Origin: Candidatus Omnitrophota bacterium
GTDB lineage: Bacteria; Omnitrophota; Gorgyraeia; Gygaellales; UBA12090
NCBI GenBank assembly: GCA_030674475.1
Contig: JAUSCZ010000029.1
Coordinates: 2,357-66,356, forward strand
DNA: 64,000 bases
Direction of reading: 5' to 3'
This document shows positions 23,489 through 45,536 of the stretch, piece after piece. A program made the position numbers and the translations under genes. The notes beneath the pieces are model-generated. The model had not been told where the DNA came from. It saw only the letters and a program-made list of their open reading frames with translations, and made no database searches. Within the stretch, counting starts at the first letter, position 1, and every line of letters begins with the position of its first letter.

Positions 23489-24829
23489 ATGATGGAAACA
23501 ACACCTAACAGAAGTAAGGGACTAAAAAGTTATTCAGGATTAGTTTTATTTTTTATTTTCTCTTTTATGTTTTTTGGGTGCGTTCCGAAAAAAGAAGAAT
23601 CTTTAACCGGAAAAACAGTTACTATCTGGCACTGGATGACTGATAGAGATCAGACCTTTCAGGAATTAGCCAGGAGGTATGAAGAGAAAACCGGAGTTAG
23701 GGTTGATTTTGAACTTTACGCTCCTTCGGATGCCTATTCCCAGAAGGTGCGGGCCGCGGCCCAGGGCGAGAATCTTCCCGATATCTTTGGCATCCTGGCC
23801 GAGAAGCGGGATTTCTCCTCTTTTGTCAAGGCCGGTTATGTGAGTGATTTGACCGCTTATATGAAGGAAAATAACGCTGAATGGGAAAAGAAATTTTTTC
23901 CCAAAGCCCTGGCAGTGAATGAATTCATAGAAGGGAATTCTTACGGCGTCCCAGCCGGGATATATGGAGTGCCTGTAGATGTAATGACCATAACGATGCT
24001 GTATAATAAAACCTTGTTTAAGGAATTGGGTTTAGACCCCAAGAGGCCGCCGGCAACCTGGAATGATTTCCTGGCTGTGGGAGAGAAAATAAAAGAGGCC
24101 AAGAAACAGGGCTTGGTCAGCGGCTGGGGTGAGATATGGATGATTGATTGTCTGGCCAGTAATTTTGCCTTTAATATTATGGGAAAGGATAAGTTTTTAG
24201 CTACTCTCCGGGGTGAAGTTCCTTATACTGACCCGGACTGGATCCGGGTTTTGACTTTATTCAAGGAAATGCAGGATAGCGGATTATTATATAACGGTTT
24301 GGTGAGTATGGTGAATAAGACCGCGGAACAAATCTTTGCCAATGAGAGGGCGGTCTTTGCCTTTAACGGCTCCTGGGGGGTTAACGTGTATGACGGGATG
24401 AACCCAAAATTGGATTATGGGGTGATGCTTCTTCCCAGGGTTTCAGATAAATTTCCGGTGAGTGTCTGGGGAGGGGCAGGTTCTTCCTTTATGGTTTATA
24501 ATAAGTCGAAAAATAAAGATGAAGCAATTAAGTTTTTAAAATGGCTGACTGAGAAAGAACAGCAGGTTTTCTTGGCCGCCCAGACCAAAAACCTTCCGGC
24601 CAACAAAGAGGCTATAGGTAATATTTCGCCGATAATGGCCCAATTTTCTTTAGGCCTGGAATACGCCACCCATCCTAATACCTGGGGATTTTCCGAGTCT
24701 TCCCAGGTAACCGAGGCCTTTGATAAAGGGGTGCAGTCAATAATCATCGGGGAAAAGACGCCGGAGCAGGTAGCCGGCGAAGCGCAGAAAATCAAGGAAC
24801 GGGAGTTAGCCAAGAAAAAGAGATTATAG
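23489..24829 (+). CDS. Sugar ABC transporter substrate-binding lipoprotein (solute-binding family 1).
   Basis: A lipoprotein signal peptide (...FMFFGC) and the fold-family hallmarks of MalE/UgpB-like substrate-binding proteins. Two permease genes follow. Confidence 0.85.
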   Translation: MMETTPNRSKGLKSYSGLVLFFIFSFMFFGCVPKKEESLTGKTVTIWHWMTDRDQTFQELARRYEEKTGVRVDFELYAPSDAYSQKVRAAAQGENLPDIFGILAEKRDFSSFVKAGYVSDLTAYMKENNAEWEKKFFPKALAVNEFIEGNSYGVPAGIYGVPVDVMTITMLYNKTLFKELGLDPKRPPATWNDFLAVGEKIKEAKKQGLVSGWGEIWMIDCLASNFAFNIMGKDKFLATLRGEVPYTDPDWIRVLTLFKEMQDSGLLYNGLVSMVNKTAEQIFANERAVFAFNGSWGVNVYDGMNPKLDYGVMLLPRVSDKFPVSVWGGAGSSFMVYNKSKNKDEAIKFLKWLTEKEQQVFLAAQTKNLPANKEAIGNISPIMAQFSLGLEYATHPNTWGFSESSQVTEAFDKGVQSIIIGEKTPEQVAGEAQKIKERELAKKKRL

Positions 24830-25820: not shown

Positions 25821-25878
25821 AAACAGAGCTAAGAACTAAGAGTTAAGAGCTAAGAAAAATAATAAAAGCGACCAAATC

Positions 25879-26727
25879 ATGAAAAATCCTTTATATTATA
25901 AGACTAAGAACATAGCGGTTAATACTGTTATCCATATTTTTCTGCTTACGATAGCAGTAAGCTGCGTCTTCCCTCTTTTATGGATGATTGGCTCCAGCCT
26001 CAAAACTCAGAGCACTATATTTTCTGATGTCTCTTTGATTCCCCGTCAGATGCATTGGGAGAATTATTATATCGCCTGGAAAGAAGGCGGCTTCGGCCGG
26101 TATTTTCTGAACAGCATTTTTTATACCACGGCGGTAGTCATCGGGATAATCGTGGTCTCTTCTTTAGCGGCTTATGCCTTTTCCCGTTTTAATTTCCGGG
26201 GAAAAAATCTGATGTTTTACTCCTTTATGGCGGCGATGATGATACCTATTCCGGGAAGCTTTGTTCCTTTATATGTCCTTTTGAATAAACTGCATTTGAG
26301 GAATACCCAGTTAGGCTATATTCTCTGTATGATAAATGTGGGGCTATCCACCAGCATATTCTTGTTCAAGACTTTTTTTGACAAAATGCCCCGGGAGCTT
26401 GAGGACGCCGCCAGGATTGACGGCTGCACCAAGTTCGGGATATGGTGGAATGTGGCCTTGCCTTTAGCCAAGCCGGTTCTGGCGGTGGTCGTGGTTTTTA
26501 ACGCTCTTAATGTCTGGAATGAGTATTTACTGGCCTTGCTGATTTTTGACAGCCGCTCTCTTATGCCTCTACAGGTGGCCTTAATGACCTTTCAGGGAGA
26601 GTATATTACCCGTTATCATCTTTTGATGGCCGGCCTGACCATAACCGCCATACCCATAATTATTGTCTATTGTCTGATGCAGAAATATATCGTCAAAGGC
26701 GTGACCCAAGGGGCGATTGTAGGATGA
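25879..26727 (+). CDS. Sugar ABC transporter permease (MalG/UgpE-like).
   Basis: EAA loop EDAARIDGCTKFGIWWNVALPLAKP. Confidence 0.85.
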   Translation: MKNPLYYKTKNIAVNTVIHIFLLTIAVSCVFPLLWMIGSSLKTQSTIFSDVSLIPRQMHWENYYIAWKEGGFGRYFLNSIFYTTAVVIGIIVVSSLAAYAFSRFNFRGKNLMFYSFMAAMMIPIPGSFVPLYVLLNKLHLRNTQLGYILCMINVGLSTSIFLFKTFFDKMPRELEDAARIDGCTKFGIWWNVALPLAKPVLAVVVVFNALNVWNEYLLALLIFDSRSLMPLQVALMTFQGEYITRYHLLMAGLTITAIPIIIVYCLMQKYIVKGVTQGAIVG

Positions 26728-29138
26728 GATTTAAATTCAAAATTCAAAATTCAAAATTCAAAATAAATTTAAATGCCAAATATCAAAACTTAAATCAAAG
26801 ATTTTGTCATTTGTCATTTGTGCTTTGTCATTATTTTGTCATTTGTGCTTTGTCATTTGTCATTAATCCTATAACTTCTTTCGCTGAAGATAAAACCTCT
26901 TCTGAACTTATCACCAAGGCCTGGGCGGCGCAGGGGGAGAAAAAATTTGAAGCGGTATTTCAATACACTCAGGAGTGTATTGATCTTTATAAAGAGCAGG
27001 CAGATAAGGAGCATTCGGCCTTAAAGGATTATCCGGCTAAAGAACAGGCCCCTCTATCTGATGTGGCAGTGGCTTATTTTATCCAGGCCGAGGCCCTGAT
27101 GCGCCAGGGAAAGCTTAAGGAGGCCAAGGAAAAGTTTCAGTTTGTGGTTGAGCATTACCGTTACGCGGTGGCCTGGGACCCTTCCCGGGGAATTTACTGG
27201 AAGGTGGCCGGGGTAGCCAAGGAAAGCCTTGATAAAATCAATGCCCAGCTTGGCGGACAGGCCAAGGAACCAAAAGAGCCGGTTAAGCCTAAAGGCCCTA
27301 AGACTTCAATTACCCTTTATGATGCCGGGACCGAAGAGGTGGTTAACTACGAGAAATACGGCGAATTCACCAATATAGGAAGCAAAGAATATAAGTATAT
27401 AATTAAAGATCAGGAGGGCTTATCCCGGGCAGTCGGGGAGGGAATATATCCTAATACTACCTCAGTCAGGTGGGATCCCAACTTCCAAAAATTGAAAAAG
27501 GATAAGCGTATGGCAGGCTCGCATTGGGATTTTGTGAATTCACCGGATTTAGAAGCGGCTTTTTTAAAATGGGCCTCCTCCACCGAGCCGGAGGGGGTCC
27601 GGCTTTACTATACCGGATTGATCTTAGAAAAAAGCGGCTTGCTTAAATCCGCAATCAAGGCTTATTATTCAATCGTGGCGCATTATCCCGGGGCTATAGG
27701 CTGGACCTATTGGCATACCCCCTGGTATGTGGGCCAGGCGGCAATTGCCAAAATAAACTTTCTTCTCAGGCGGCATCCGGAATTAGGCCTAAGGCTAAGT
27801 GAGGCCAGGATCCGTATTGTGAACGGCTATGATAACGATATAAGTAATGACATTATTATTACCAATCCGGGTAAATTAGAAAAGATTTCGGTTCAGACCG
27901 CTAATATCTTAAGTAAGGTTAAGGATGCCTTTGGTAAGCTCACCCGGAAGAAAGAAATCAAAAAGACTGTCGGTGAAGGGAAGGTTAAGTTAGTACAGTA
28001 TCAGGATTCTTCCTGGCAGGTCTTAGTGGATGGCGAGCCTTTTGTGGTTAAGGCCCTTACCTATGCCCCAACAAGAATAGGCCAGTCGCCGGATGAAGGG
28101 ACGCTGGGTAATTGGATGAGAGAGGATTTTAACCAGAACGGCAAGATTGACGGCCCTTATGACAGCTATTTAGAGGATAGTCCGGGTAAGCCAGAGGGCG
28201 ATGGTTTGCTTTCCGATAGGCAAAGCCATAAGCCGGTCGGTGATTTTCAACTGATGAAGTATATGGGAGTAAATTCCATCCGGCTCTATCACCACCCTAA
28301 GGAAATCAATAAAGAATTGCTCCGGGATTTATACCACACCTACGGGATAAGGGTGATGATTGGAGATTTCCTGGGGAAATACGCCCTGGGTTCAGGCGCT
28401 CCCTGGAATCCCGGCACCGACTACCGCAACCCCGAACACCAAAAAAATATGCTGGAGTCGGTCCGGAAAATGGTTGAGGAATTTAAAGATGAGCCTTATG
28501 TTTTATTCTGGATTCTGGGAAATGAGAATGTCTATGGAGTGGCTTGTAACGCGGATAAAGATCCGGAGGGTTTTTTTAAATTTGCCAATCAGGCCGCGCT
28601 TTTAATAAAATCTTTGGATAAGGATCATCCGGTGGCCATTGCCAGTGGGGATGTCATATACCTGGACCGTTTTGCCAAGTTTTCGCCGGATGTGGATATA
28701 TTTGGCAGTAATGTGTACCGCGGTGATTACGGCTTCGGAAGCCTCTGGTATTCGGTGAAGGAAGAGGCGGATAAACCGGTTATGCTCACTGAATTCGGCT
28801 GTCCGGCTTATGCTGAAGGCCTCACTCAGGAAGAGGCGGAAGAGGCCCAGGCTAATTATCACAAGGGAGCCTGGGAGGATATTCTCTGTAATATGAATGT
28901 TAACTGCGGCTCGGGAAACTCTATCGGCGGGATAGCCTTTGAGTTTATGGATGAATGGTGGAAGGCTTACGAGCCCTCAAAGCACGATACCAAAGGTTTT
29001 TTTTCCGGGCCTTTTCCGGATGGATATATGCATGAGGAGTGGCTGGGAATAGTGTCTCAGGCCGACGGCAAGGACAGTCCTTTTAAGAGGCACTTGCGCA
29101 AAAGCTATTATATGTATCAGAAGGCCTGGGAAGAGTAG
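26724..29138 (+). CDS. Secreted glycoside hydrolase, GH-A clan TIM barrel (GH5/GH2-like). The proposed ATG at 26724 overlaps the upstream TGA (ATGA coupling); the ORF track gives a TTG at 26670.
   Basis: WILGNENVYG (acid/base NE) and MLTEFGCPAY (nucleophile E) are about 90 aa apart, and a signal-peptide-like N-terminus ends in SFA-ED. The gene is paralogous to 30546-31847. Confidence 0.65.
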   Translation: MRFKFKIQNSKFKINLNAKYQNLNQRFCHLSFVLCHYFVICALSFVINPITSFAEDKTSSELITKAWAAQGEKKFEAVFQYTQECIDLYKEQADKEHSALKDYPAKEQAPLSDVAVAYFIQAEALMRQGKLKEAKEKFQFVVEHYRYAVAWDPSRGIYWKVAGVAKESLDKINAQLGGQAKEPKEPVKPKGPKTSITLYDAGTEEVVNYEKYGEFTNIGSKEYKYIIKDQEGLSRAVGEGIYPNTTSVRWDPNFQKLKKDKRMAGSHWDFVNSPDLEAAFLKWASSTEPEGVRLYYTGLILEKSGLLKSAIKAYYSIVAHYPGAIGWTYWHTPWYVGQAAIAKINFLLRRHPELGLRLSEARIRIVNGYDNDISNDIIITNPGKLEKISVQTANILSKVKDAFGKLTRKKEIKKTVGEGKVKLVQYQDSSWQVLVDGEPFVVKALTYAPTRIGQSPDEGTLGNWMREDFNQNGKIDGPYDSYLEDSPGKPEGDGLLSDRQSHKPVGDFQLMKYMGVNSIRLYHHPKEINKELLRDLYHTYGIRVMIGDFLGKYALGSGAPWNPGTDYRNPEHQKNMLESVRKMVEEFKDEPYVLFWILGNENVYGVACNADKDPEGFFKFANQAALLIKSLDKDHPVAIASGDVIYLDRFAKFSPDVDIFGSNVYRGDYGFGSLWYSVKEEADKPVMLTEFGCPAYAEGLTQEEAEEAQANYHKGAWEDILCNMNVNCGSGNSIGGIAFEFMDEWWKAYEPSKHDTKGFFSGPFPDGYMHEEWLGIVSQADGKDSPFKRHLRKSYYMYQKAWEE
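26733..26764 (+). repeat. Heptanucleotide tandem repeat (AAATTCA) of about 4.6 copies, 9 nt downstream of the glycoside-hydrolase start codon.
   Basis: aaattcaaaattcaaaattcaaaattcaaaat. The unit length is not a multiple of 3. Confidence 0.9.
26795..26856 (+). repeat. Heptanucleotide-based tandem array (TTTGTCA/TTTGTGC) of about 8 copies in the signal-peptide coding region of the glycoside hydrolase.
   Basis: tttgtcatttgtcatttgtgctttgtcat tatt ttgtcatttgtgctttgtcatttgtcat. Confidence 0.85.
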
Positions 29139-29359
29139 TGGCAGGCCTATGTGCCTGCCCAAAAGGTAATGGCTTGCCCTGTCTCGTAAGACTCCGCTGT
29201 CGGCGGGGCAACGGCGGGGATAATTGGTTTTCCCTTGCGTAAACGCTCGTAAATTTCTACGAAATTTACTTCGCACGCTTCGGGATTAATTCGCACAGTG
29301 ACTTACGTTCACTCGCTTCGCTCGTTCCGTAAGTCACGTGCTCATTAGGAGGAAGTAAA

Positions 29360-30553
29360 ATGAGTAAGAAGATGTTAGTTGTTATGGTGGGTTTTTTGGC
29401 AGTTGCTAATCTTTGCCGGGCGGCTGAAGAGGCGGCTGTCCCCGCGGCAGTTAGTAAAACAGCGGTTAGTCAGGCGAAAGAGGCCGGCAAGAATTTTAAG
29501 GTTTATACCGATAGGCAGACTTCGGATAACCATTATGCCCCTTCCGGGTGGATGGGCGATGTCGCCGATATTAAAATTAACGACCAGTCAACCGATAATC
29601 CTCACAGTGGAACAACCGCTATTCAGTTTGTGTATAGCGCTAAAAAATCTCAAGGCCAGGGTTGGGCGGGCGTGTATTGGCAGAATCCAGCCAACAATTG
29701 GGGCTCTAAAAAAGGTGGATTTGATTTAACCGGAATGACCAAACTTTCCTTCTGGGCCAGAGGGCAAAAAGGGGGAGAGATAATCCAGAAAGTTAAGGTT
29801 GGGGGAATCAAGGGCGTCTATCCGGATACCGCTGAGATAGAATCCGGCCCGATAGAGCTTACGGACAGCTGGCAGGAATATACCATTAATCTGGTGGATA
29901 AGGATCTTTCCTATATCAGCGGTGGTTTTTCCTGGGTGGTTACTGCCGATCAAAATCCGGAAGGGGCCACATTCTTTCTGGATGATCTAAAATTTGAGGC
30001 TGATATATCGGTAAAAGCGGCCAAGAAAGAAGCGCAAAAGATGCCTTTTTATGTTTTTGCCGACCGGCGTTCGGTGGGAAATCATTTTATTCCTTCCGGC
30101 TGGATGGGCGATTACGGGGATATTAAAATAGATACCGGATGGAAAGACAATCCTTATATGGGAGATACCTGTATTAAGATTACCTACAGCGGTAAAAATT
30201 CACAAGGGGCCCGCTGGGCCGGGATGTATTGGCAGAATCCTCCGAATAACTGGGGTTCTATTGATGGCGGTTATGATTTAAGCTCCTCCAGTAAGGTTAC
30301 TTTTTGGGCCAGGGGCGATAAGGGCGGAGAAAGAATTGAAGAGTTTAAGATCGGCGGGATTATGGGTGAGTTTTCAGACACGGATATCGCCTCAGTCGGC
30401 CCGGTGATTTTAACCAAAGAATGGCAGCAGTATTCCATTGATTTAAAAGGCAAAGACATTTCCTATATTAGCGGCGGTTTTTGTTGGGCTACCAATGTGG
30501 ATGTAAATCCAGAAGGGGCCGTATTTTATCTTGATGAAATAAAGTATGAGTAA
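29360..30553 (+). CDS. Secreted protein with two tandem beta-sandwich domains of about 185 aa each, likely carbohydrate-binding-module-like.
   Basis: A signal peptide is present. There is an internal duplication (FKVYTDRQTSDNHYAPSGWMGD...FFLDDLKFE versus FYVFADRRSVGNHFIPSGWMGD...FYLDEIKYE). Glycoside-hydrolase genes flank it. Confidence 0.55.
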   Translation: MSKKMLVVMVGFLAVANLCRAAEEAAVPAAVSKTAVSQAKEAGKNFKVYTDRQTSDNHYAPSGWMGDVADIKINDQSTDNPHSGTTAIQFVYSAKKSQGQGWAGVYWQNPANNWGSKKGGFDLTGMTKLSFWARGQKGGEIIQKVKVGGIKGVYPDTAEIESGPIELTDSWQEYTINLVDKDLSYISGGFSWVVTADQNPEGATFFLDDLKFEADISVKAAKKEAQKMPFYVFADRRSVGNHFIPSGWMGDYGDIKIDTGWKDNPYMGDTCIKITYSGKNSQGARWAGMYWQNPPNNWGSIDGGYDLSSSSKVTFWARGDKGGERIEEFKIGGIMGEFSDTDIASVGPVILTKEWQQYSIDLKGKDISYISGGFCWATNVDVNPEGAVFYLDEIKYE

Positions 30554-31847
30554 TGAAAACATAGAGTACAGAGTACAGAGTACAGAGTACAGGAAGAAAA
30601 AAATAAAATCTTTCTGTTCTCTGTTCTCTGTTCTCTGTTCTCTGTTTTTACTGGGGATGGCCTCTCGGCCGCTTCCTGAAGTTCGAATCCGCAAGCTGAA
30701 AAATAACGCTTACCAGTTATTAGTTAAAAATAAACCTTATTTTATTAAAGGGGTGTGTTATTCGCCTGTTCCGATAGGCCAGGGGCACGAGTATGATTTC
30801 TGGTCTGATCCCGCGGAACCCTGGAAGATAGACGGCAAGCTGATGCAAGAGATGGGGATAAATACCGTGCGTTTTTATCAGCTTCCCGGGAATCCGGATA
30901 GCGCTAAAAAGGTCATTAATGATTTGTATCAGCTTTATGGAATCCGTTCCATATTAGGTAATTGGCTGGGTTTCTGGGAATATCCCTGCCCGAGATACGC
31001 GGATAAAGACTTTCAGGAAAAAGTTAAAAAAGATGTTTTAGATATGGTGAGGATTTATAAGGATGAGCCCGGGGTTCTCTTATGGATTCTGGGAAACGAG
31101 AATAATTATTCATTTTCGGAAAGGGTAAATTCGTGGGGTTCACCGGAAATTGACGCGATTACCGATGTCCGAAAACGCTGTGATATCCGGGCGGGAATTT
31201 ATTATAGCTTTGTTAATGAATTAGCCAAGGAGATACATCTGATTGACTCTCAGCATCCGGTGGCTTTGGGTAACGGGGAATTAATTTCTTTGGATGCGGC
31301 TAATCAGGTTTGCCCGGACATTGATTTGGTGGCGCTTATTGTGTATCGGGGAAAGACCTTCGGTAACCTTTTTAAGTCTTTGAGGGCGACTTTTGATAAG
31401 CCGCTTTTGATTAGTGAATTTGGCGCCGACAGTTATGATGCCTACCTTAAAAAAGAAGACCAAAACGCGCAGGCGCTCTTTTTAGAGTCCCAATGGAGAG
31501 AAATTTTTAAACATTCATATCCGAATAAAGAGGGAGCCCAGAATTGTTTAGGCGCGACGATGTTTGAATGGACGGATGAATGGTGGAAGCACGATGAGGC
31601 TTCTCCGGAGAGCTGGAAAATTCAGGATACCGAAAGCAACTGGTCAAACGGGAGTTATTACTTTGACATTAAGGCTGAGCGGAATATGAATATGAACGAG
31701 GAGTGGTTTGGTATCGCGGCCTTATCTGAAGAGCGTGAGAACGGCACAAATAAAAGGGTTTTGCGCAAGGCCTATTATGTCTTAAGGGAATTCTGGAAAA
31801 ACCCGGTTTTAAATCATAAGGACAGAAAGAAGATTAAATCCAAATGA
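30546..31847 (+). CDS. Secreted glycoside hydrolase, GH-A clan, a paralogue of 26724-29138 (catalytic domain only).
   Basis: WILGNENNY and LLISEFGADSY; about 35-40% identity to the first glycoside hydrolase across the barrel. The ATG overlaps the upstream TAA. Confidence 0.65.
   Translation: MSNENIEYRVQSTEYRKKKIKSFCSLFSVLCSLFLLGMASRPLPEVRIRKLKNNAYQLLVKNKPYFIKGVCYSPVPIGQGHEYDFWSDPAEPWKIDGKLMQEMGINTVRFYQLPGNPDSAKKVINDLYQLYGIRSILGNWLGFWEYPCPRYADKDFQEKVKKDVLDMVRIYKDEPGVLLWILGNENNYSFSERVNSWGSPEIDAITDVRKRCDIRAGIYYSFVNELAKEIHLIDSQHPVALGNGELISLDAANQVCPDIDLVALIVYRGKTFGNLFKSLRATFDKPLLISEFGADSYDAYLKKEDQNAQALFLESQWREIFKHSYPNKEGAQNCLGATMFEWTDEWWKHDEASPESWKIQDTESNWSNGSYYFDIKAERNMNMNEEWFGIAALSEERENGTNKRVLRKAYYVLREFWKNPVLNHKDRKKIKSK
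30563..30583 (+). repeat. Heptanucleotide tandem repeat (AGAGTAC, 3 copies) 17 nt downstream of the start codon of the second glycoside hydrolase.
   Basis: agagtacagagtacagagtac, followed by an A7 run. Confidence 0.85.
30606..30640 (+). repeat. Heptanucleotide tandem repeat (TCTGTTC, 5 copies) in the signal-peptide region of the second glycoside hydrolase.
   Basis: tctgttctctgttctctgttctctgttctctgttt. Confidence 0.85.
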
Positions 31848-33550
31848 CAAAGCCCAAAATTAAAAATAAATTCAAAGCCCAAATACCAAGCAACAAAATT
31901 CTTGTTTTGATGTTTGGTATTGGAATTTTAAATTTATTTTGTCATTTGCTCGCTGCTGAGGAACAAATCCCTAAAAATACAGAGCAACTGGAACAACAGA
32001 TTCTGGCTAATCCTCAAGAGAATGCCTTAGCCCTGGAAGAATTGTCCGGGCTTTACTTTTCCGGGGGTCAGTATAATCAGCTGGTGGATTTTTTGAGGAA
32101 ATTGGAGAAAACCGCTGTTTCCGGATGTGAATTGCCTTTAGGCTACCATATCGGATTGTGCCGTTATCATCAATTAAGGTATTTGGAGGAAACCAGGAAT
32201 TGGCCGGAGTATTTTGACCGGGGCAATTTTTATAGAGAAGAGCTGTTTCAAGAGACACTGAAAACAGTTTCTTTATGCCCGGAATCTCCTTTGGCGATTA
32301 AAGCTCAGGTTATCAACTGGCTTGAGCATAAGGCCCAAAATGACTCTTTAGGCAAAGATGCCCTGGATAAATTGATAAGTTTAATTAATACCTATGTAAA
32401 ACAAGAAGTAGAAGTATTAAATTTAGAGGTAATTAAGGAAGCGGCGGATATTTTACAAAGAGAAGAAGAGCCGGCTTTAGCCAAGGCCGTATATAATCTT
32501 TATGTCAGCCGTTTAGACAGCGCTAAAACAGCGAAGGAAGAACTGCGCTTGGCCGCCGAGAGCGCTTTAGAGAGCGGGAATATCTCTTTGGCTGAGATTG
32601 TCTACGAACGTTATATCAATGGCATTAAAGGGTTTCTTTCTAAAGAAGATTTAGCTAAAGAGTTGACGGTGATTGCCGAACACTTTAGGTTTAAGGATAT
32701 GGCTTATGCCGAGAAGATATTTACTATTTTAGAAGATTCCTGCGGGACAGGCTGTTTCAGCGAGGAGCTTCAATATTCGCGGGCCTATAATTTACAGCGG
32801 TTAAAAGATTATTCCAAGGCGCTACAGGAATATGAAAAGCTGGTGAAAAATTTTCCCGCGAGTCTTCGTATTAATGAAGCGGAATTTAAACTGGGCGTGC
32901 TTTACACCTATATAATATCTCAGAAGGGAGAAGGCTTAAATTATTGGCAAAAGGTTATTGAGCGCGATTCGGATTTAATTTTAGTAGTGGAAAGTTTATA
33001 TCATAGGGCTCTTATCAATCAATATGGTGAATATTTGACTCAAGCCTTGGCGGACTACTCCAGGATTTTAGAGCTCATTAATAATAATCCCGATTTTAAA
33101 GAACTCACGGAGCGCGTATACGGAAGGCAAAAAGAGATTCAGGAGTCAAAGCCTATAGAGTATAACCTGAAGACCTTTCTTGACGTTTCTTTAAAAAACG
33201 GGGGGATAATTAAATCTCAGGCGTTAGCTCTTAATCTTTCGGCAGAGCCTTTTAAAACTACCACGAGTCCTTCGACCGCGCTCATCATAGATAAACAGGT
33301 GAAATTCAGCCTCAATCAGCCTCAGGCAATGACCGGTTGCCTAGTTCCTGAGTTTACCTATCTTTGGTCCGGAGATTTAGGCGGTATTTATCCTGTTCCC
33401 GTAACTCCGGAATTTTCCGCCGATTATCAAACAAAAGGGGTCAAGGTTGTTAATGTGGTAGTCTTATCCGGATTAGAGCCGGTGGGAAGCGCCTTAGAAA
33501 TGGTGGATGTAGATGATGCTAAAGAGAAACCAGAAACCAGTAACCAGTAA
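31844..33550 (+). CDS. TPR-like helical repeat protein (568 aa) with an N-terminal signal or anchor.
   Basis: Predominantly alpha-helical repeats, and ATGA overlap coupling with the upstream glycoside hydrolase. I recognised no catalytic motif. Confidence 0.5.
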   Translation: MTKPKIKNKFKAQIPSNKILVLMFGIGILNLFCHLLAAEEQIPKNTEQLEQQILANPQENALALEELSGLYFSGGQYNQLVDFLRKLEKTAVSGCELPLGYHIGLCRYHQLRYLEETRNWPEYFDRGNFYREELFQETLKTVSLCPESPLAIKAQVINWLEHKAQNDSLGKDALDKLISLINTYVKQEVEVLNLEVIKEAADILQREEEPALAKAVYNLYVSRLDSAKTAKEELRLAAESALESGNISLAEIVYERYINGIKGFLSKEDLAKELTVIAEHFRFKDMAYAEKIFTILEDSCGTGCFSEELQYSRAYNLQRLKDYSKALQEYEKLVKNFPASLRINEAEFKLGVLYTYIISQKGEGLNYWQKVIERDSDLILVVESLYHRALINQYGEYLTQALADYSRILELINNNPDFKELTERVYGRQKEIQESKPIEYNLKTFLDVSLKNGGIIKSQALALNLSAEPFKTTTSPSTALIIDKQVKFSLNQPQAMTGCLVPEFTYLWSGDLGGIYPVPVTPEFSADYQTKGVKVVNVVVLSGLEPVGSALEMVDVDDAKEKPETSNQ

Positions 33551-36500
33551 CCAGTCCCGATTAACTATCGGGATCCCGACTCTGTCGGGAAAAAACGGGT
33601 TAAAGATAATAATCGTTATCTTTCTTCTGGCGTGCGGCGCGCGGCCTGCTTTTGCCCAAGGCGCGATAGGCGATTATCTCTGCGAGATTGCCGAATCCTA
33701 TTATCTTAACGGCCGATATGAGGACGCCTTGCACGAGTTTAATAAGGCCCTGCTTGCTGATCCTGAGAATGTTAAGGCCAGGAAATATGTGGATAAGCTC
33801 ACCGGAAAATCTAAAGACGCGCTCAAACAGAAAGAAACCAAAGAAATAAAGCTTAAAGAGAGCGTCTTACCTACCGGCCCTCGGCTTCGCCGCGAGGCGA
33901 GCAGGCAGGATTTTGACCTTTCCTTAAAGGAGAATGGGGAATTTATGCCGGTAACAGAGGAGCCGGTTGCCGTCCTTCCCTTTAAAAAAGAAAGCCCCAG
34001 GAGGAAAGACGCGGCTTTAATCGGTCCGCGCGAGTCCGCGCCGGAAGAGCCTGTTTTAGCCAAAGCCGGGCCAAAAAGAATAGAATCTGAAGCAAGTCAA
34101 AAGTCGAGAGTTATTTCTGAAAAAAAGCATATTGTTGAGCCGATTATTCCGGAAGAAACCAGGCCCAGGAAATTAATTACCAGGAACGAGGCGGAAAAGA
34201 GAAGAATTGTTTCTTCGGCCCTGAATGATTTTATAAAAGAAGAGAGACTTGAAAAAGGGGAAGTGATTCCGGTCAAACTTTCCGGAGAATATCAGATTGC
34301 CTTAGGCGCGACATCTGATGGCTTTGAGTGGAAAAAGGCCAATGGAAACCTTAATGAAAGAGATTATCATATTTTATCGGACGCGGCCTTAAATAATCGC
34401 GAAAATACCTTTGACCACCGGATATTTGACCGTTTCCGGGCAAATCTGGATACTAAGAATACCCAAGGCCTGAATTTCCATACCAATATAACAGTTGACC
34501 CCTGGAGCTTTATTGGTAAGTCCGACAAGTTTACCCTTAGCAATGCCTCTGGCACGGATAGCGCGGAAATAGAGCTGAAATACTGGTCAAACACCGGACG
34601 AGTTCTTAATGAAACTTTTTACACTAAAATCTTAGGTGATTCTTTTGCCATTCCGGAAATCAAGGTTAAGGATGACAAGACTTCGGCTCTGGCCCAGAAG
34701 ACAACCTTTGGCGGGACTTTTAATATCCCGTCAAAAAAAATCCATCGGGAATTTCAGCCGGTAAGAGAGTTATGGTTTGATTATGCTCTGGATAATGCCA
34801 AACTTAGGGTTTTTCCCCTGGCCCTGAGCGATCAGGCCTTAACCAGTGATGACCCTTTAGGGCTCTCTAATCACCATATTTATTGGGAGGAAAGCCCTTG
34901 GATTCTAAAGTGGGAGCCGGGTCATGTTAATACTGGTACCGGCGCCCGCGATTTTAGTTTGGGAAGATGGAGTGATTCTTTAGCTTTTGCTACCCGCGAC
35001 AGCAATCTGTTTCGGCTGACTGCTTTGAGGGGATTGTCTTTTGACTATCAACCTACGGATGAAACCTCATTTAAAATGACCGGCGCTTCTCCTAAGGGCC
35101 TGTGGCAGGATTATAATAGTTTTGATAGTTTTCCCATAGCCGCGCGTTTTAAGCAGGATATAGGCGATAAGTTGATGCTGGGCAGTACCTATACTTATCG
35201 CTTAGGCCTGAATGAAGATGAAAATTATGAGCGGGACGCGGTAAATTATACCTGGGGGCTTGACTCCGGATTTAGCCCGGTTATCGGAACCAAATTAGAA
35301 AGCGAAGTGGCTGTTTCGCTTTCTAAACAGGATATATCTTCCTCTTATTCCAGTAATAAGCGGGGAATGGCATATCATTTGGCTTTATTAGGTTCGCCGG
35401 ATAGAGACCTTTTAGGTTTGAATTATAATTCCATCAAACCCCAAGAAACAGATTTTTCTTTTTTTAAGGGAAGGCTGCAATTTACCCGTATGGATGAAGG
35501 TTTTGACCCGGCCTTAGCCAGCTATCGGGAAACCCGTAAGGACAGATTTTGGTCCCGGCATATTCATTTTAGAAAACCCTTTGCCAAGCTTTACAGCGAT
35601 ACCGATTATGGTGAGCCCAGTTTAAGCTGGGATGATGTTGCCCCTTCCGCTATCGGTGATGGGATTGATATTGGCCGGAATGTTTTTGGCCTGCGCCTGG
35701 AAGCCTCAACCTTAGACCGCAGGCTGGATGAGCTTTTTGATGTCAGGAATGTGCATAAATCCAACGGTAAATACTTAGAAAATGTAGCCCGTTCCGAGAC
35801 TACTTATAAGCCTACTGAGAAGCTGACCACCAAGGTTTTAGCGATCTATCACGATATGCATCAAACCCATGCCGGGAAAGACCCTTATTTAGTAGACGCG
35901 CAAAGCGACAGGATTGTTGATAACAGCATTATCCCGGATGATAAAAACCCCTCAACTAAAACTTTTTCTTTAGGAGCGAATTATGATTTTTTTGATTGGG
36001 TGTCGGCGTATAGCATTTGGGAATATTCCAATGATATTAACGCGGCCTACGAAGCCTTTCCCCGGGGGATTTTAAACAGCGGAAGTTTTGAGACCTTTAG
36101 GGAATACGGAAAGACCTTTCGCCGGTCAACCACCTTTTTGTATAACCAATATTATTTTCCCCTGCCGCCGTATCCTTTTAATAATTCTTATAAATTCGGG
36201 CTTACCTTGCGCCTGGCCCAGAGGTGGGAGATATTTTTGAATTTTACCCGCAATGAATATGAATATGCCGGGCCCATCACTGATGACATTAATCACGCCG
36301 GAATAGAGATAGCTTACAGCTTCAGCAAAAAGCTGAAATTTTTCACCAAGTACGCCTTTAGCGAGATGAACGATTTAATAATGATGAATGTCGGAGAGAA
36401 TGTGCGGTATGAAAATCATCACAATTTCTTTTTTGAAGGTAAATACAGTTTTACCTCTGACGATGAGCTGACTTTTCAATTTGGCGAGTTCGGGCGCTCA

Positions 36501-39376: not shown

Positions 39377-39527
39377 TGCGCTGTTAATTTAATTTTTAAT
39401 AAGACAGCGCACAGAGCAATTGAGCAATAGACAATAGAACAATAGACAAACAAAAGCTCAATTGCGGTCTAATGCTCTATTGTTCAAAAACTAATTTAAC
39501 AATCAGACTGTGTCGCAATCTCTTAAA

Positions 39528-39636
39528 ATGACCATTTTGTCATTCTGAGGGAGCAAAGTGACCGAAGAATCTCGTCGGTAATTTAAAAAACGAGATCCTT
39601 CGCTAGCGCTCAGGATGACATTATGACACAGTCTGA
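39528..39636 (+). repeat. Long imperfect palindrome (arms of about 40 bp) in the intergenic region upstream of the LacI-family gene.
   Basis: gtcattctgagggagcaaagtgaccgaagaatctcgtcgg ... aacgagatccttcgctagcgctcaggatgacatt are approximately reverse-complementary. Confidence 0.45.
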
Positions 39637-40687: not shown

Positions 40688-40819
40688 TTTTAAAAATCCT
40701 AAATCCGAAATCCTAAACAAATCCAAAACCCAAATTCTCTAAATCCCCCGCCATTGGCGGGACAGGCAAAACATTCTATTTTGAGTTTGTTTAGAATTTA
40801 GAGTTTAGAATTTAGTGTT

Positions 40820-41869
40820 TTGTTTAATATAATTCTATCAGTAAAGCCAATAATCTTGAATACTCCTCTTGTTTTAAATAGATTCCTGGCTATGGGTGTG
40901 GGCAGCCTTCCTCATACCGAATCCGACCTCGCCTGCCGATTGATTTTTAAACATCTTAAACAGGATGTTCCTTTCTGGCCGCAGTTACCCAAAAGAAATT
41001 TTAAGGAAAATATGTACGTCCAGTTTTCTCAAACGCTTCCCGGCGTGGTTATAGATGAGGCCGGGCAGAGAATATGGATTGACGCCTTAAAAGATGATTA
41101 TTCTCAAAACGTAGAGGCGCTTTACGAGCATTATCTCGCTGATGACCTGGATTATTTCGCCATCGGTAAAGATTACGCCCGGGGGTTTTATGAATTCTTA
41201 AACTGCTTAAAGGTTGAGCCTTGTTCTTATATCAAAGGCCATATTATCGGCCCGATTAGTTTTGGACTGACAGTATCTTCTCAAGATAAAAAGGCGAGTA
41301 TTTATAATCTTGAATTCCGCGATTGCTTAGTTAAGGCTTTAGAAATGAAGGCCAGATGGCAGGCTAGGGAAATGAAATCCATAAGCCCTTCTTCGCGGGT
41401 GATCATCTGTATTGACGAGCCGTATCTGGTTTCAATCGGCTCAAGTTTTTTTAATATCAAGAACGAAGAGGTAAGCGCTATGCTTAACGATGTGGTTAAA
41501 GCGATTCATAAGGAAGGCGCCTTCGCGGCTGTTCACTGCTGCGGAAATACCGATTGGGGAATTGTGTTAAAGACCGATATAGATATCCTGAATTTTGATG
41601 CCTACAATTATTTAGAGACTATTTTTATTTACCGCGAAGAATTAGAGAATTTTCTCAAACGAAAGGGCCTCCTGGCCTTTGGGATTATTCCCAACAGCGC
41701 CCAGGGCCAACTGCCCGAACCAAACGCTTTGCTGGATAAAATCGGCCGCCAGGATAATTTTTGTCTGGTGAGCCCTTCCTGCGGATTAAGCGGGGTTTCC
41801 GAGGAGAGGGCGGATGAGGTGCTTGCTCTTACCTCTAATTTCAGCAGATTTCTCGACGGAGTTAAATAG
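40820..41869 (+). CDS. Cobalamin-independent methionine synthase (MetE) catalytic-domain-like / URO-D-fold methyltransferase-like protein. The start is probably the internal Met at 40892.
   Basis: The zinc-site-like residues ICIDEPYL, AVHCCGN and SPSCGLS resemble the MetE C-terminal IQIDE...H.C...NPDCGL pattern. I cannot resolve it below family level. Confidence 0.4.
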   Translation: MFNIILSVKPIILNTPLVLNRFLAMGVGSLPHTESDLACRLIFKHLKQDVPFWPQLPKRNFKENMYVQFSQTLPGVVIDEAGQRIWIDALKDDYSQNVEALYEHYLADDLDYFAIGKDYARGFYEFLNCLKVEPCSYIKGHIIGPISFGLTVSSQDKKASIYNLEFRDCLVKALEMKARWQAREMKSISPSSRVIICIDEPYLVSIGSSFFNIKNEEVSAMLNDVVKAIHKEGAFAAVHCCGNTDWGIVLKTDIDILNFDAYNYLETIFIYREELENFLKRKGLLAFGIIPNSAQGQLPEPNALLDKIGRQDNFCLVSPSCGLSGVSEERADEVLALTSNFSRFLDGVK

Positions 41870-42005: not shown

Positions 42006-45000
42006 ATGACAATAAAACTTTCTGATAACGCGCTTAAGGTATTAGAAAGACGCTATCTTAAGAAAGACAAAGAAGGCAGGATAGTAGAAAGCCCGGAGGA
42101 GCTTTTTCGCCGGGTGGCTCACACTGTAGCCGCGGTGGAGAAGGCTTACGGCAGGAATGAGGCTCAGATCCGGGACCTGGAGAGTAAATTATATGATATG
42201 ATGGCCAACCTGGAATTTATGCCTAACTCTCCCACTCTGATGAATGCCGGAAGAGAGCTTTCTCAGCTGTCGGCTTGTTTTGTCCTTCCCATTGAGGATT
42301 CAATGGAGTCTATCTTTGAGAGCCTTAAGGCCACGGCGATGATCCACAAAAGCGGAGGAGGGACCGGTTTTTCTTTCTCTAAGCTCAGGGCTAAAAACAG
42401 TATGGTTCTTTCTACCGGAGGCATCGCCTCGGGACCGGTTTCCTTTATGAAGGTCTATGACGCCGCGACCCAGGCGGTCAAACAGGGCGGCACCCGGCGG
42501 GGGGCCAATATGGGTATATTAAGGATAGACCATCCGGATGTCCTGGAATTTATCCGGTGTAAGGAATCGGATAAAGACATAACCAATTTCAATATCTCAA
42601 TAGCGGTTACCGATGATTTTATGCGCAAGCTGGAAAAGGGCGAAGACTATGAACTGATTGACCCGCACACCAAAAAGCCGGTAAAGCGTCTTAATACCAA
42701 ATATGTCTTTGATTTGATTGTCAAGCAGGCCCATAAGAACGGCGAGCCAGGGGTAATCTTTATTGATAAAATAAATGCTAATAACCCCACCCCTAAATTA
42801 GGCGCCATTGAAAGCACTAACCCATGCGTAATAGGCGATACCTTGGTTTCCACGGAAAAAGGGTTGATTAAAATTAAAGATTTGGCTAATGATTATCCGC
42901 GAGGCGGAATAGATATTGCCACTGATGACAGGGTGGGTGATATTCTTTATGGTGAGCCAGAGCAAGGCGGCGGGGTTTCGACATTAACTGAAAAGAAGAC
43001 CGCCATTACTTTTAACCGGATTTCACAAGCATTTAAAACAGGAATAAAGCCGGTTTATAAGTTAATTACCGAATCAGGTTATGAGTTTACTGCTACTGCC
43101 GATCATAAGGTTATGACTCTTGAAGGCTGGGTGAGGTTTGAGGATCTAAAGCCAGGGACGCATAAAGTCCTTATTCAGTCTGAGGCTGGTAGATTTAATA
43201 CTGATTCAGCGCTTCCATTCGAAGTTGTGAATGAATATATAGGAGAAAATGGCAGAATATATAAGCTGAATCTGCCTTATAGCTGGTCAAAGGAATTAGG
43301 CCAAATTTTGGGGTGGTTGATTGGTGATGGATGGCTTAAGGATGATGAAAATTGCCGCGCAGGGTTTACCTTTAGCCAGGAAGACAAAGAAGTGCTGGAG
43401 TGTTTAAAGCCGGTTATTAATAATTTTTACGGGGCTGATATTAAAGAGACGCTTCGGGAAAATAATGTGTATCATCTTTCCTATCATAGCAAATATTTTG
43501 TGGAGTTTTTTAAGAACCTTGGCGTAAAGGCGGCGGTAAGCGAAGACAAGGAAGTGCCTTTGGCAATATTTACTGCTACTGGCGACGCGGTAATAGGATT
43601 TTTGCAGGGATTATTCAGCGCCGACGGTACGGTGGGATTTACAGAGAATAAAAACTCTTATATCAGACTGACCTCCAAATCCATAAAATTGCTTAAAGGA
43701 ACGCAATTACTGCTATTGAACTTTGGCATAAAATCAAAAATATATGATCGTTCGCGCCCCGCGCGGGAAGGTTTTGAATATATAACAAAAAATAATGAAA
43801 AACGGACATATAAACTTGACGGTAAACTTTTTGAACTTTCTATATCCAGGGAGGCGGTTATTTTATTTTTGGAAAGGATCGGCTTTTTATGCGATAAACA
43901 CTCAATAAAGATTGATAAATTGCTCTCTAAAGATTATTATCAGACTTCGTTCAGTGAGGATATTAAAACTATTGAGCCTTGTGGCGAAGAAGAAGTTTAT
44001 GACTTGACTGAGCCGGCCACTCATTCATTTATCGCTAGTGGTATTGTGATTTCAAATTGCGGGGAGCAGCCACTTTTGCCGTATGAGTCGTGCAATTTAG
44101 GCTCGATTAACTTAGAGCGGATGTTTATCAAGAAAGATACGGGTATTGAAATTGATTGGGAGAAATTAAAGAAGACCGCCCAGCTATCCGCGCATTTTCT
44201 GGATAACGTGATTGACGCCAATAAGTTTCCCCTGCCGGAAATTGAGAAAATGACCCGCCAGAACCGTAAAATCGGGCTGGGGGTAATGGGTTGGGCCAGC
44301 TTGCTTTGCCGCCTGGGTATCTCCTATGATTCTGAAGAGGCCATTTCTTTAGCTGAAAAAGTTATGTCTTGTATCCGGGAGGAAGCCAGGAAGAAATCCG
44401 AGGAACTTGCCCGCTTAAAAGGGCCTTTTCCCGCCTTTAAGGGAAGTATTTATGACCAGCCCAATGCTCAAAAACTGCGTAATGCCACTCTCACTACTAT
44501 CGCCCCCACCGGGACCATCAGCATTATTGCCGGGCCCTGTTCTTCCGGGATAGAGCCGCTTTTTGCCATATCTTATTACCGGATGGTAATGGATCAGGAT
44601 AAGCTGGTTGAGGCTGACCCGGTATTTGAGGAGATCGCTAAAGAGAGGGGATTTTATTCCCGGGAACTGATGGTTAAAATCGCCGAGAAAGGCTGTATTC
44701 AGGACATAGAGGAAATACCCCAGGAACTAAAAAAAGTTTTTGTGGTGGCCCATGATATTTCGCCGGAATGGCATATTAAGATGCAGGCGGCATTTCAGAA
44801 ATACACGGATAACGCCGCCTCTAAAACCATTAATATGCCTCATGAGGCAACCTTAGAAGATGTCCGGCAGGCCTATCTTCTGGCCTATAATTTAGGCTGT
44901 AAAGGGGTAACCGTGTATCGCGACAGGAGCCGGGAAGAACAGGTGTTAAATATTGAGCGTCCAGAAAAAAATCCTAAGAAGGAGGCAGCTGTGCAGGAGG

Positions 45001-45536
45001 AGAAAAAAAACGAACCCCATGATAAGATTGCCCCTCGCCCCCGGCCGGAGGTGGTGGTGGGAACCACTACTAAAGTAGCCACCGGATGCGGCAATCTTTA
45101 TGTAACCATAAATTCTGATGAAGAGGAAATGCCTTTTGAGGTTTTTACCCAGATGGGTAAGGCCGGAGGTTGCGCCGCCAGCCAGTTAGAGGCGATTGGC
45201 CGGTTGGTATCGCTTGCCTTTCGCTCCGGGATTGAGGTTAAGGTGATAATTGAGCAATTGCGCAATATTCGCTGCCCTTCGCCTTCCTGGGAAAAAGGGG
45301 TGCGGATCTTTTCTTGCGCCGACGCTATTGCCCGGGTGGTTGAGAAGAGGCTTTTGAATATCGGCACCGCGCACAAACACCGGGAGATTTCCTCCAAGGC
45401 CACTAAAGCCGAAGAGCATTTAATTGAACAGAATATTACTTCTGATATAATCGGAGTCTGTCCTGATTGCGGAGGAGCCCTTCGCCACGAAGAAAGCTGC
45501 GTCAAGTGCCAGTCTTGCGGATATTCTAAGTGCTAA
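42006..45536 (+). CDS. nrdJ: Class II (adenosylcobalamin-dependent) ribonucleotide reductase NrdJ, interrupted by an intein. The extein is 765 aa.
   Basis: N-extein ...LGAIESTNP | intein | CGEQPLLPYESCNLGSINL C-extein, which restores the NPCGEQPL radical-Cys loop. The C-terminal zinc ribbon is CPDCGG...CVKCQSCGYSKC. Confidence 0.85.
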   Translation: MTIKLSDNALKVLERRYLKKDKEGRIVESPEELFRRVAHTVAAVEKAYGRNEAQIRDLESKLYDMMANLEFMPNSPTLMNAGRELSQLSACFVLPIEDSMESIFESLKATAMIHKSGGGTGFSFSKLRAKNSMVLSTGGIASGPVSFMKVYDAATQAVKQGGTRRGANMGILRIDHPDVLEFIRCKESDKDITNFNISIAVTDDFMRKLEKGEDYELIDPHTKKPVKRLNTKYVFDLIVKQAHKNGEPGVIFIDKINANNPTPKLGAIESTNPCVIGDTLVSTEKGLIKIKDLANDYPRGGIDIATDDRVGDILYGEPEQGGGVSTLTEKKTAITFNRISQAFKTGIKPVYKLITESGYEFTATADHKVMTLEGWVRFEDLKPGTHKVLIQSEAGRFNTDSALPFEVVNEYIGENGRIYKLNLPYSWSKELGQILGWLIGDGWLKDDENCRAGFTFSQEDKEVLECLKPVINNFYGADIKETLRENNVYHLSYHSKYFVEFFKNLGVKAAVSEDKEVPLAIFTATGDAVIGFLQGLFSADGTVGFTENKNSYIRLTSKSIKLLKGTQLLLLNFGIKSKIYDRSRPAREGFEYITKNNEKRTYKLDGKLFELSISREAVILFLERIGFLCDKHSIKIDKLLSKDYYQTSFSEDIKTIEPCGEEEVYDLTEPATHSFIASGIVISNCGEQPLLPYESCNLGSINLERMFIKKDTGIEIDWEKLKKTAQLSAHFLDNVIDANKFPLPEIEKMTRQNRKIGLGVMGWASLLCRLGISYDSEEAISLAEKVMSCIREEARKKSEELARLKGPFPAFKGSIYDQPNAQKLRNATLTTIAPTGTISIIAGPCSSGIEPLFAISYYRMVMDQDKLVEADPVFEEIAKERGFYSRELMVKIAEKGCIQDIEEIPQELKKVFVVAHDISPEWHIKMQAAFQKYTDNAASKTINMPHEATLEDVRQAYLLAYNLGCKGVTVYRDRSREEQVLNIERPEKNPKKEAAVQEEKKNEPHDKIAPRPRPEVVVGTTTKVATGCGNLYVTINSDEEEMPFEVFTQMGKAGGCAASQLEAIGRLVSLAFRSGIEVKVIIEQLRNIRCPSPSWEKGVRIFSCADAIARVVEKRLLNIGTAHKHREISSKATKAEEHLIEQNITSDIIGVCPDCGGALRHEESCVKCQSCGYSKC
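42825..44057 (+). other. Intein (411 aa) with a LAGLIDADG homing-endonuclease domain.
   Basis: It begins with Cys (CVIGDTLV), block B is TADH, the two LAGLIDADG motifs are ILGWLIGDGWL (about 43308) and IGFLQGLFSADGTV (about 43594), and it ends ...GIVISN followed by the +1 Cys. The penultimate His is replaced by Ser. Confidence 0.8.

Follow-up and report, generated by a model that had tools for sequence, protein, structure and literature searches.

Heptanucleotide tandem repeats at operon junctions of Omnitrophota, many of them very probably translated within signal peptides

Introduction

The DNA analysed here is a 64,000-nucleotide stretch (the window) of a metagenome-assembled genome (MAG) of Candidatus Omnitrophota, an uncultured lineage. 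It contains an operon in which three genes begin with tandem repeats of heptanucleotide units: two for glycoside hydrolases, which we call GH1 and GH2, and one for a tetratricopeptide repeat (TPR) protein. What are such repeats doing at the very start of genes for presumably secreted proteins? An initial annotation had noted the arrays just downstream of three start codons, a position that the map of open reading frames (ORFs) bears out (ATG at 26724, 30546 and 33513), and had proposed that they may switch the genes on and off by slippage.

We find that arrays of this period are a lineage-wide feature of gene junctions and not of three genes, and that those of the three genes are very probably translated, lying as they do between coupled start codons and conserved signal-peptidase sites. 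Programmed phase variation is not supported, although it keeps a small probability. The reading that we favour, with moderate confidence, is that the arrays are heptameric simple sequence repeats (SSRs) made by slippage and kept in spacers and leader regions; in the leaders, translation would turn them into n-regions and cores of Sec signal peptides, their frame being held by selection. In the literature that we searched there is no report of heptamer repeats or of repeat-built leaders in Omnitrophota.

Results

Period-7 arrays of the operon

According to the ORF map and Pfam domain assignments, the operon runs in the order sugar-binding protein, two ABC permeases, GH1, a 397-aa protein, GH2, a 568-aa TPR-like protein and a 1027-aa TPR protein. 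GH1 (804 aa) consists of a GH2-type TIM barrel and TPR; GH2 has 433 aa. Several of the genes start within the preceding ORF. The overlap is 4 nt for GH1, whose ATG at 26724 overlaps the permease stop codon at 26725-26727 (ATGA), 8 nt for GH2 (ATG at 30546, upstream stop codon at 30551-30553), 4 nt for the 568-aa gene and 38 nt for the TPR gene, where the TAA stop codon of the 568-aa ORF (33548-33550) falls within an array. Among the signal-peptide genes of the window, long leaders built of repeats or palindromes occur only where the start overlaps the upstream gene, and those behind normal spacers have short ordinary leaders.

Repeats were detected with Tandem Repeats Finder (TRF) and with a scan for exact repeats of at least 3 copies, for which Markov shuffles served as a control. 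The period-7 arrays of the window, as placed by TRF, are:

26733-26764, + strand: AAATTCA x4.6, 100% matches, unit stop-free; reads as KFKIQNSKFK, the putative Lys-rich n-region of GH1
26803-26864, + strand: degenerate TTTGTCA/TTTGTGC x9.3, with a 25-nt higher-order repeat at 26810-26857; reads as the putative hydrophobic core of GH1, CHLSFVLCHYFVICALSFVI
30563-30592, + strand: AGAGTAC x4.3, perfect; reads as EYRVQSTEY; 5' arm of the GH2 hairpin
30613-30646, + strand: TCTGTTC x4.9, perfect; reads as the putative hydrophobic core of GH2, CSLFSVLCSL; 3' arm of the hairpin
33528-33555, + strand: AACCAGT x4.0, unit (A/T)AACCAG, 95% matches; within the 38-nt ORF overlap of the TPR gene
23544-23575, + strand: TTTTATT x4.6, weak, T-rich, 80% matches; within the lipoprotein leader of the sugar-binding protein
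25825-25855, + strand: AGAGCTA x4.4, non-coding, in the 58-nt spacer between the two permease genes; unit contains TAA
39413-39449, + strand: CAATAGA-type, non-coding, with a complementary partner downstream; strongly structured on folding (z = -9.6)
40694-40820, + strand: non-coding inverted pair of AAATCCT (40694-40743) and TTTAGAA (40790-40820), arms 80% complementary

The first five of these are the arrays of the initial annotation; all are present, with small corrections of their boundaries. The AGAGTAC array has 4.3 units and runs to 30592, not three units to 30583; the TCTGTTC array, with 4.9 units, lies at 30613-30646 and not at 30606-30640; the TTTGTCA-type array occupies 26803-26864 and not 26795-26856. 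The non-coding arrays and the weak one at 23544-23575 had not been mentioned, nor had the palindromic leader (31863-31940) of the 568-aa gene. Adjoining the CAATAGA array, in the 312-nt spacer upstream of a gene for a LacI-type regulator, a large inverted repeat (TCAGACTGTGTCGCAATCTC .. GACATTATGACACAGTCTGA) surrounds a second palindrome (GTCATTCTGAGG..CTCAGGATGAC) at 39503-39636.

In the window, the exact-repeat scan recovers four arrays of period 7, and the remaining periods between 4 and 12 yield none; the Markov shuffles contain 0.0 exact arrays of period 7. Because period 7 alone yields exact arrays and the shuffles yield none, the shared period is not a matter of chance, as had been supposed from the outset. 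The units themselves are diverse, and the window alone holds at least nine different ones.

Period 7 in related loci

The window was compared with a set of 81 related loci amounting to 1.3 Mb, which covers 20-64 kb per genome (loci are designated by L and a number). The 80 loci retrieved by means of GH2 all belong to Omnitrophota. Close relatives were drawn from cluster members, from the contigs encoding them and from a metagenome scan; the scan of metagenome DNA with a 20-mer matched L003-type junctions and unrelated sequences only.

Exact arrays of at least 3 copies in the 81 loci have a period of 7 in 23 cases, of 4 in 14 and of 6 in 5, and none was found at the other periods between 4 and 15. 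TRF reports 73 period-7 arrays, distributed over 29 loci, among ~210 arrays in all (next commonest period: 27). About 50 of the 73 fall within the opening ~100 codons of long operon-strand ORFs, and 21 are non-coding. The arrays within ORFs are always in the leader of the sugar-binding protein, GH1, GH2, 568-aa or TPR proteins, and arrays return at the same four or five operon junctions across species while their units differ. Other periods are found at the same junctions: hexamers in L003 and L084, an octamer in L097 and an 11-mer in L095. The proposal of an on/off signature specific to three surface-protein genes is thus not supported: the period-7 arrays number 73 in 1.3 Mb, 21 of them non-coding, those of the window are short, and copy numbers are largely conserved.

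Arrays as parts of signal peptides

Putative signal peptides were read directly from the translations and from the comparison of orthologues. In the window, the leaders of four genes are as follows:

26724..26885, + strand: GH1 leader, predicted, 54 aa, MRFKFKIQNSKFKINLNAKYQNLNQRFCHLSFVLCHYFVICALSFVINPITSFA, followed by cleavage before EDK
30546..30662, + strand: GH2 leader, predicted, 39 aa, MSNENIEYRVQSTEYRKKKIKSFCSLFSVLCSLFLLGMA, followed by cleavage before SRP
31844..31957, + strand: leader of the 568-aa TPR-like protein, MTKPKIKNKFKAQIPSNKILVLMFGIGILNLFCHLLAA; inverted repeat of 31863-31898 with 31905-31940, 81% complementary; related to the GH1 cassette
33513..33656, + strand: leader of the 1027-aa TPR protein, predicted, 48 aa, MMLKRNQKPVTSNQSRLTIGIPTLSGKNGLKIIIVIFLLACGARPAFA, followed by cleavage before QGAIG

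In these translations the A-rich units give a charged or polar n-region of Lys, Asn and Gln, and the T-rich units a core of Phe, Leu, Cys and Val. By segments, the GH1 leader reads MRFKFKIQNSKFKINLNAKYQNLNQR-FCHLSFVLCHYFVICALSFVI-NPITSFA before EDK, the GH2 leader MSNENIEYRVQSTEYRKKKIKS-FCSLFSVLCSLFLLGMA before SRP, and the TPR leader ..NQKPVTSNQ..GLK-IIIVIFLLACGARPAFA before QGAIG. The layout is that of Sec signal peptides of type I or II, with a positive n-region, a core of 10-20 residues and small residues at -3/-1 or a lipobox. Some GH1 leaders (L069, L054) translate as ..LVIGYW../..LAIGHW.., which corresponds to TTGGTCA-type units, the same heptamer as the cyanobacterial STRR2 (STRR, short tandemly repeated repetitive sequence); these units are close to the TTTGTCA unit at 26803-26864. 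Similar heptamers are thus met again in phyla that are not related.

The frame was extended upstream from the conserved mature N-terminus in 81 sequences of GH2 and in 66 of GH1. Nearly all orthologues have a hydrophobic leader or a lipobox directly before the mature start, whether this leader is built of repeats or not. The mature start is marked by ..GMA|SRP.. or ..LS(A/G)C.. in GH2 and by ..FA|(Q/E)DKPSSGE in GH1, and upstream of it the frame is mostly free of stop codons as far as a start codon overlapping the preceding gene. For the TPR protein, the cleavage site and mature start are kept in L083, L004, L096, L086, L097 and L098. No ATG, GTG or TTG is found between the first array and the hydrophobic segment in GH2 and the TPR protein of the window, or from the arrays to the conserved mature N-terminus in GH1 and the TPR protein, codons within the hydrophobic array excepted. 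Of the 50 arrays in an N-terminal context, 44 are preceded by an ATG in the same frame and one by an alternative start, and another two are at the ends of contigs; the three arrays without a start are that of L003, a spacer array and one in a spurious ORF.

With three or more units, a heptamer array passes through all three phases, and its amino-acid content is set by base composition alone. Since all three phases are read, an array fits into an ORF only if its cyclic unit is stop-free. The units of ORF-internal arrays are indeed stop-free, and spacer arrays mostly contain TAA, TAG or TGA. Leader position, open frames and the leaders of orthologues together support the earlier suggestion that the arrays lie in the part of the genes coding for signal peptides, and the proteins led by them are likely to be secreted.

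Turnover of the junction sequences

Mature GH2 proteins that are 92-97% identical to that of the window are preceded by at least five unrelated junction sequences. For the TPR gene we find at least four unrelated types and for GH1 at least three, and the types assort independently between strains. The edges of the replaced segments coincide with functional boundaries, namely the stop codon and the cleavage site. The same leaders also appear on different genes. The GH1 cassette of the window, its non-repeat spacer included, matches the TPR-gene leaders of L004 and L096 over 152 nt with 91% identity, and in L006, L016, L038, L074 and the window related cassettes are found on two or three genes each. 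In L078, where mature GH2 is 57% identical, the cassette is of the AGAGTAC/TCTGTTC type as in the window.

Differences between homologous arrays repeat with the unit. In L083, three units in a row have AGAGTGC for AGAGTAC, and in L004 every unit has CAAAACT for CAAAATT. Changes that recur from unit to unit indicate that each array is homogenised, presumably by slippage. A-directed mutagenesis of the kind made by diversity-generating retroelements was considered for the A-to-G changes of L083 and rejected, as a T-to-C change is also present and the changes are periodic. Integron attC sites were rejected as well: gene order is kept across 80 genomes, and the junction alone changes.

Secondary structure of the junctions

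The two GH2 arrays are able to pair with each other:

30554..30650, + strand: GH2 hairpin, long and imperfect, 6-bp helices with one U.U mismatch per unit and an 11-nt A-rich loop

The predicted fold has an energy of -50.6 kcal/mol (z = -7.5), and none of 200 shuffles folds as well. The A-to-G changes of L083 turn A-U pairs of this hairpin into G-U pairs. For 79 orthologous GH2 junctions, each represented by the 130 nt that precede the mature start, z has a median of -4.9 and is below -3 in 81%, as against a median of -0.2 and 4% below -3 in control windows within the gene (p = 5e-28). Adjacent period-7 arrays are complementary at 5.07 of 7 positions, compared with 3.46 of 7 for random pairs (p = 2e-7), and never perfectly; independent homogenisation of the two arms together with the instability of perfect palindromes would produce such imperfect complementarity.

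In the window, the GH1 cassette is weakly structured (z = -2.8) and the TPR array is unpaired. The notion of a conserved hairpin at every junction was dropped, the GH2 junction alone differing from controls; strong structure being conserved only there, a role of the hairpin is not general. A difference in folding between the plus and minus strands, considered as a sign of selection at the RNA level, proved uninformative, as controls show the same bias from GC skew. An Rfam search over 22-48 kb gave no match, and a scan for terminator and promoter consensus sequences found no excess and flagged no cassette. For GH2, the hairpin is probably an intercistronic RNA element for stability, processing or translational coupling.

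Copy number and frame

Perfect arrays have between 4.0 and 4.9 units, and their length is largely constant between relatives. Copy number of the GH2 arrays is equal in the window and in L083, whose protein is 96% identical; the AACCAGT array has equal length in the window, L097 and L098; AAATTCA is present in 4.6 units in GH1 of the window and in the homologous TPR-gene cassettes of L096 and L004; and 14 cluster members share an identical TTTCAGC leader in the 568-aa gene. The non-coding hexamer hairpin likewise has the same copy number in seven assemblies, which include L003, L085, L086, L088 (one substitution), L092 and L097.

The length differences listed here are all in frame. They amount to 21 nt, or exactly 3 units, between L084 and L004, to 24 nt between L096 and L004, this deletion in L096 being in the cassette segment that matches the GH1 array at 26803-26864, and to 36 nt in the TPR gene of the window:

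33556..33591, + strand: in-frame insertion of 36 nt with two mini hairpins (CCCGAT..ATCGGG and TCCCGAC..GTCGGGA), absent in L097 and L098

Caution is due with copy numbers from short-read MAGs, because assemblies break or are N-gapped at the arrays. L007 has a scaffold gap (N) with duplicated flanks at 6300-6320, exactly at an array, and L001 and L002, which are Logan unitigs, stop 33 nt past the upstream stop codon, exactly at the arrays. The Logan contigs represent one sample, SRR13727527, and as they end at arrays they are not independent evidence of copy number.

Neighbouring features of the window

The first third of the window (93-22244) is a single ORF of 7383 aa with a G-rich skew throughout. 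Giant proteins of this kind have been reported for Omnitrophota. At 42006-45536, the large subunit of ribonucleotide reductase is split by an intein with a LAGLIDADG homing-endonuclease domain (residues ~289-683).

Discussion

Slippage repeats held in frame

How could such leaders come about? We suggest that replication slippage with a strong lineage bias towards 7-nt units produces the arrays, and that they persist only where this tightly packed operon tolerates changes of sequence, in spacers between cistrons and at the 5' ends of genes for secreted proteins, which code for the leaders. A unit that is stop-free in every frame would allow the array to be translated. An A- or purine-rich array would then give an n-region of Lys, Asn, Gln, Arg and Glu and a T-rich array a core of Phe, Leu, Cys, Val and Ser, so that an A-rich array followed by a T-rich one, with a coupled start before and an AXA-type cleavage site after, would make a working Sec signal peptide. 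Slippage would both homogenise each array and drive very fast turnover, and close strains would therefore end up with unrelated cassettes. Purifying selection would hold the frame and let through only changes in length by multiples of 3 nt or of 3 units. Where adjacent arrays are nearly complementary, most clearly in GH2, the mRNA may form a long imperfect hairpin right behind the start codon.

Heptameric SSRs have been found in excess in other bacteria (cyanobacteria, Xanthomonas, Beggiatoaceae; PMC4692102, PMC4679880), and polymerase slippage has been named as the cause (PMC4692102). The arrays of Omnitrophota resemble these SSR and STRR systems in the lineage-wide excess of period 7 at gene boundaries, in the presence of some inverted pairs able to form stem-loops, and in length and sequence that vary widely between close relatives at the same position. 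The known systems, however, are described as intergenic and rely on one or few units per genome (GGGAATC, TAACTGA, three STRR units; PMC4692102, PMC4679880), whereas in Omnitrophota nearly every array has its own unit and about two thirds are within leaders that are very probably translated.

Several observations weigh against the reading that we favour. The argument for translation of the first, A-rich arrays consists of the lack of alternative in-frame starts and the conservation of frame. The annotation pipeline PGAP begins GH2 at M38 (30657; MDO8748661.1, 396 aa), after both arrays, and thereby drops the signal peptide. In L084, a strain that is 92% identical, an ordinary GH2 leader following a non-coding hexamer hairpin contains a TGA nonsense codon in place of GGA (4265-4320), and the gene caller begins at MASRP; this is possibly a leader-less or inactivated allele, and such or OFF alleles may be tolerated. 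The TTTCAGC array of the 568-aa gene has five units in L003 and six in seven related sequences compared at the DNA level, and the ORF from the coupled ATG of L003 ends after 72 codons, which may be a genuine OFF allele or the collapse of a 28-nt perfect repeat in a short-read MAG. At the GH1, 568-aa and TPR genes, junction structure across orthologues does not differ from that of controls. Finally, full replacement of cassettes within ~5% protein divergence is faster than simple slippage obviously explains.

Two of these points touch on annotation. GH2 M38 is part of the conserved G-M-A motif at the predicted cleavage site of many orthologues, and the PGAP start may be a systematic mis-call. 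The record MDO8748661.1 (locus tag Q7J72_06090, on a 130,745-nt contig) is a protein identical to GH2; exact-protein look-ups with the three full-length ORFs returned no record, and a look-up with the 397-aa ORF likewise gave no result. The L084 locus is also without the 1027-aa TPR gene, and its 568-aa-type gene (598 aa) is directly followed by a ROK regulator.

A self-complementary cassette family

Another explanation we regard as possible, though clearly less likely than slippage held in frame. The leaders could be a family of self-complementary cassettes which code for Sec signal peptides by sense/antisense codon complementarity and are exchanged between unrelated genes and between strains. 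The A-rich arm would give the Lys/Asn/Gln n-region and its T-rich complement the Phe/Leu/Ile/Cys core. If this were true, the cassettes would be portable signal-peptide modules doubling as an mRNA hairpin, and would let this lineage form new export signals or exchange old ones quickly.

Contingency loci

The initial proposal was that of true contingency loci, in which slippage by single heptamers switches the glycoside hydrolases and the TPR protein at a useful frequency. Part of it stands: the units are within the ORF and not a multiple of 3, so that gain or loss of one unit would indeed shift the frame. The closest functional analogue is the CTCTT repeat of Neisseria opa genes, pentamers in the leader-coding region whose copy number varies between alleles and which switch at ~1e-3 per generation (PMC3960869). 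As in opa, a repeat whose unit is not a multiple of 3 is located in the signal-peptide region, slippage by one unit would cause a frameshift, and a pyrimidine-rich repeat gives hydrophobic residues in every frame. The perfect or nearly perfect, homogenised state of the arrays implies ongoing slippage, and the L003 allele with five units, its ORF cut short, indicates that single-unit slippage may occur.

The copy numbers nevertheless make this proposal unlikely. At most one OFF allele is seen among the 50 arrays in N-terminal context, and coexisting ON and OFF alleles were otherwise not found; L003 is itself a short-read MAG in which collapse of the perfect repeat is plausible. Unlike the opa repeats with their frequent switching, the arrays of Omnitrophota have 4-5 units with a copy number kept across strains and independent assemblies, and the indels of 21, 24 and 36 nt are in frame. 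The opa leaders also differ in that those of Omnitrophota add a second, A-rich array in the n-region, able to pair with the other. Fixed in-frame copy numbers in orthologues had been named beforehand as evidence that would speak against switching, and they are largely what we observe (the window and L083, L097 and L098, L096 and L004, the 14 cluster members). Non-coding spacers are filled by the same type of repeat. Short-read contigs do end at arrays, which would agree with switching, but such breaks at a 32-nt repeat are expected from unitigs with k = 31.

A comparison with Haemophilus influenzae leads in the same direction. There, ATCTTTC repeats in the promoter region of hmw1A and hmw2A, present in 13-24 units in the constructs used, grade transcription and do not affect the frame (PMC8262952). 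In both cases a surface-protein gene has a heptanucleotide SSR at its 5' end or ahead of it, but the arrays of Omnitrophota, at 4-5 units, are shorter than would suit high-frequency slippage and lie within the coding sequence.

A mobile palindromic element

Slightly less probable still is that the cassettes are a mobile, non-autonomous palindromic element, similar to REPINs (palindromic doublets of repetitive extragenic sequences) or to miniature inverted-repeat transposable elements, and possibly moved by a transposase like the REP-associated tyrosine transposases (RAYT), so that the coding of signal peptides would be an exaptation. The occurrence of the GH1 cassette with its spacer on the TPR gene of L004 and L096, and the related cassettes on two or three genes of one genome, speak for this explanation, and the window contains a candidate transposase:

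46986-47672: Y1 (HUH) transposase, RAYT-like, 228 aa; best match the NCBIfam family 'REP-associated tyrosine transposase' at 71.7 bits, below the cutoff of 80

The region of this gene (46866-47672) has a perfect palindrome with 26-nt arms upstream and a third copy of the same 21-mer at the 3' end. On the opposite strand, a fragment of a Mutator-family transposase (47517-48137, - strand; PF00872, profile positions 101-218 of 379) overlaps the 3' end of the Y1 gene. Many GH2 leaders and the giant ORF contain, inserted in frame, another hairpin element, GGGACGGTTCT..AGAACCGTCCC. In the giant ORF it is the inverted repeat GGGGACGGTTCT..AGAACCGTCCC at 15842-15911, which reads as ..NGDGSICLSSPLGKDRKTEPSR..; this element (RDGS....LRTVP) is in frame in the GH2 leaders of L010, L014, L016, L049, L055, L060, L066 and L076.

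Against mobility, the palindrome flanking the RAYT-like gene, TAGGGACACATCCCAATTTTC, occurs only beside that gene and has no sequence in common with the cassettes, and neither target-site duplications nor conserved termini were seen at the cassettes. The boundaries of replaced segments at the stop codon and cleavage site are those that selection alone would give, arrays of the same unit can match by convergence, and the count of cassette copies is limited to the 20-64 kb covered per genome. REPINs are extragenic, conserved in sequence within a genome and associated with RAYT transposases (PMC3116915, PMC3337134). Palindromic elements of ~100 nt at junctions, several related copies per genome and a RAYT-like gene in the window recall them, but the cassettes are very probably translated, built of tandem units and unrelated to the palindrome flanking the RAYT-like gene. 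Of the inverted doublet typical of REPINs, a long hairpin is formed by the GH2 and 568-aa cassettes, a weak one by that of GH1 and none by that of the TPR gene; and near-identical extragenic copies related to the RAYT flanks were not found, the cassettes being intragenic.

Untranslated repeats

That the arrays are untranslated intercistronic or 5' untranslated repeats, with true starts downstream and frames that are open by accident of stop-free units, is improbable: the PGAP start of GH2, the stop-containing, non-coding hexamer array that forms the equivalent hairpin in L003 and L084, and our estimate that ~66% of random heptamers at this base composition are stop-free would agree with it, but start codons between arrays and mature N-termini are lacking in GH1 and the TPR gene (the hydrophobic-array codons aside), the leader is at the same place in all orthologues, strain differences in length are multiples of 3 nt and include exactly three heptamers, stop-containing units are confined to spacers, and in L003 a separate ordinary signal peptide comes after the non-coding hairpin.

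Implications

The slippage reading, with arrays translated and held in frame, extends the known excess of heptamer repeats to Omnitrophota. If it is true, ordinary slippage repeats are directly readable as working export signals, and leaders turn over much faster than the proteins they carry, which bears on the origin and swapping of signal peptides. It also matters for annotation: a start placed after the repeats, as PGAP has it, would wrongly assign a secreted glycoside hydrolase to the cytoplasm, in a lineage that is uncultured and possibly host-dependent.

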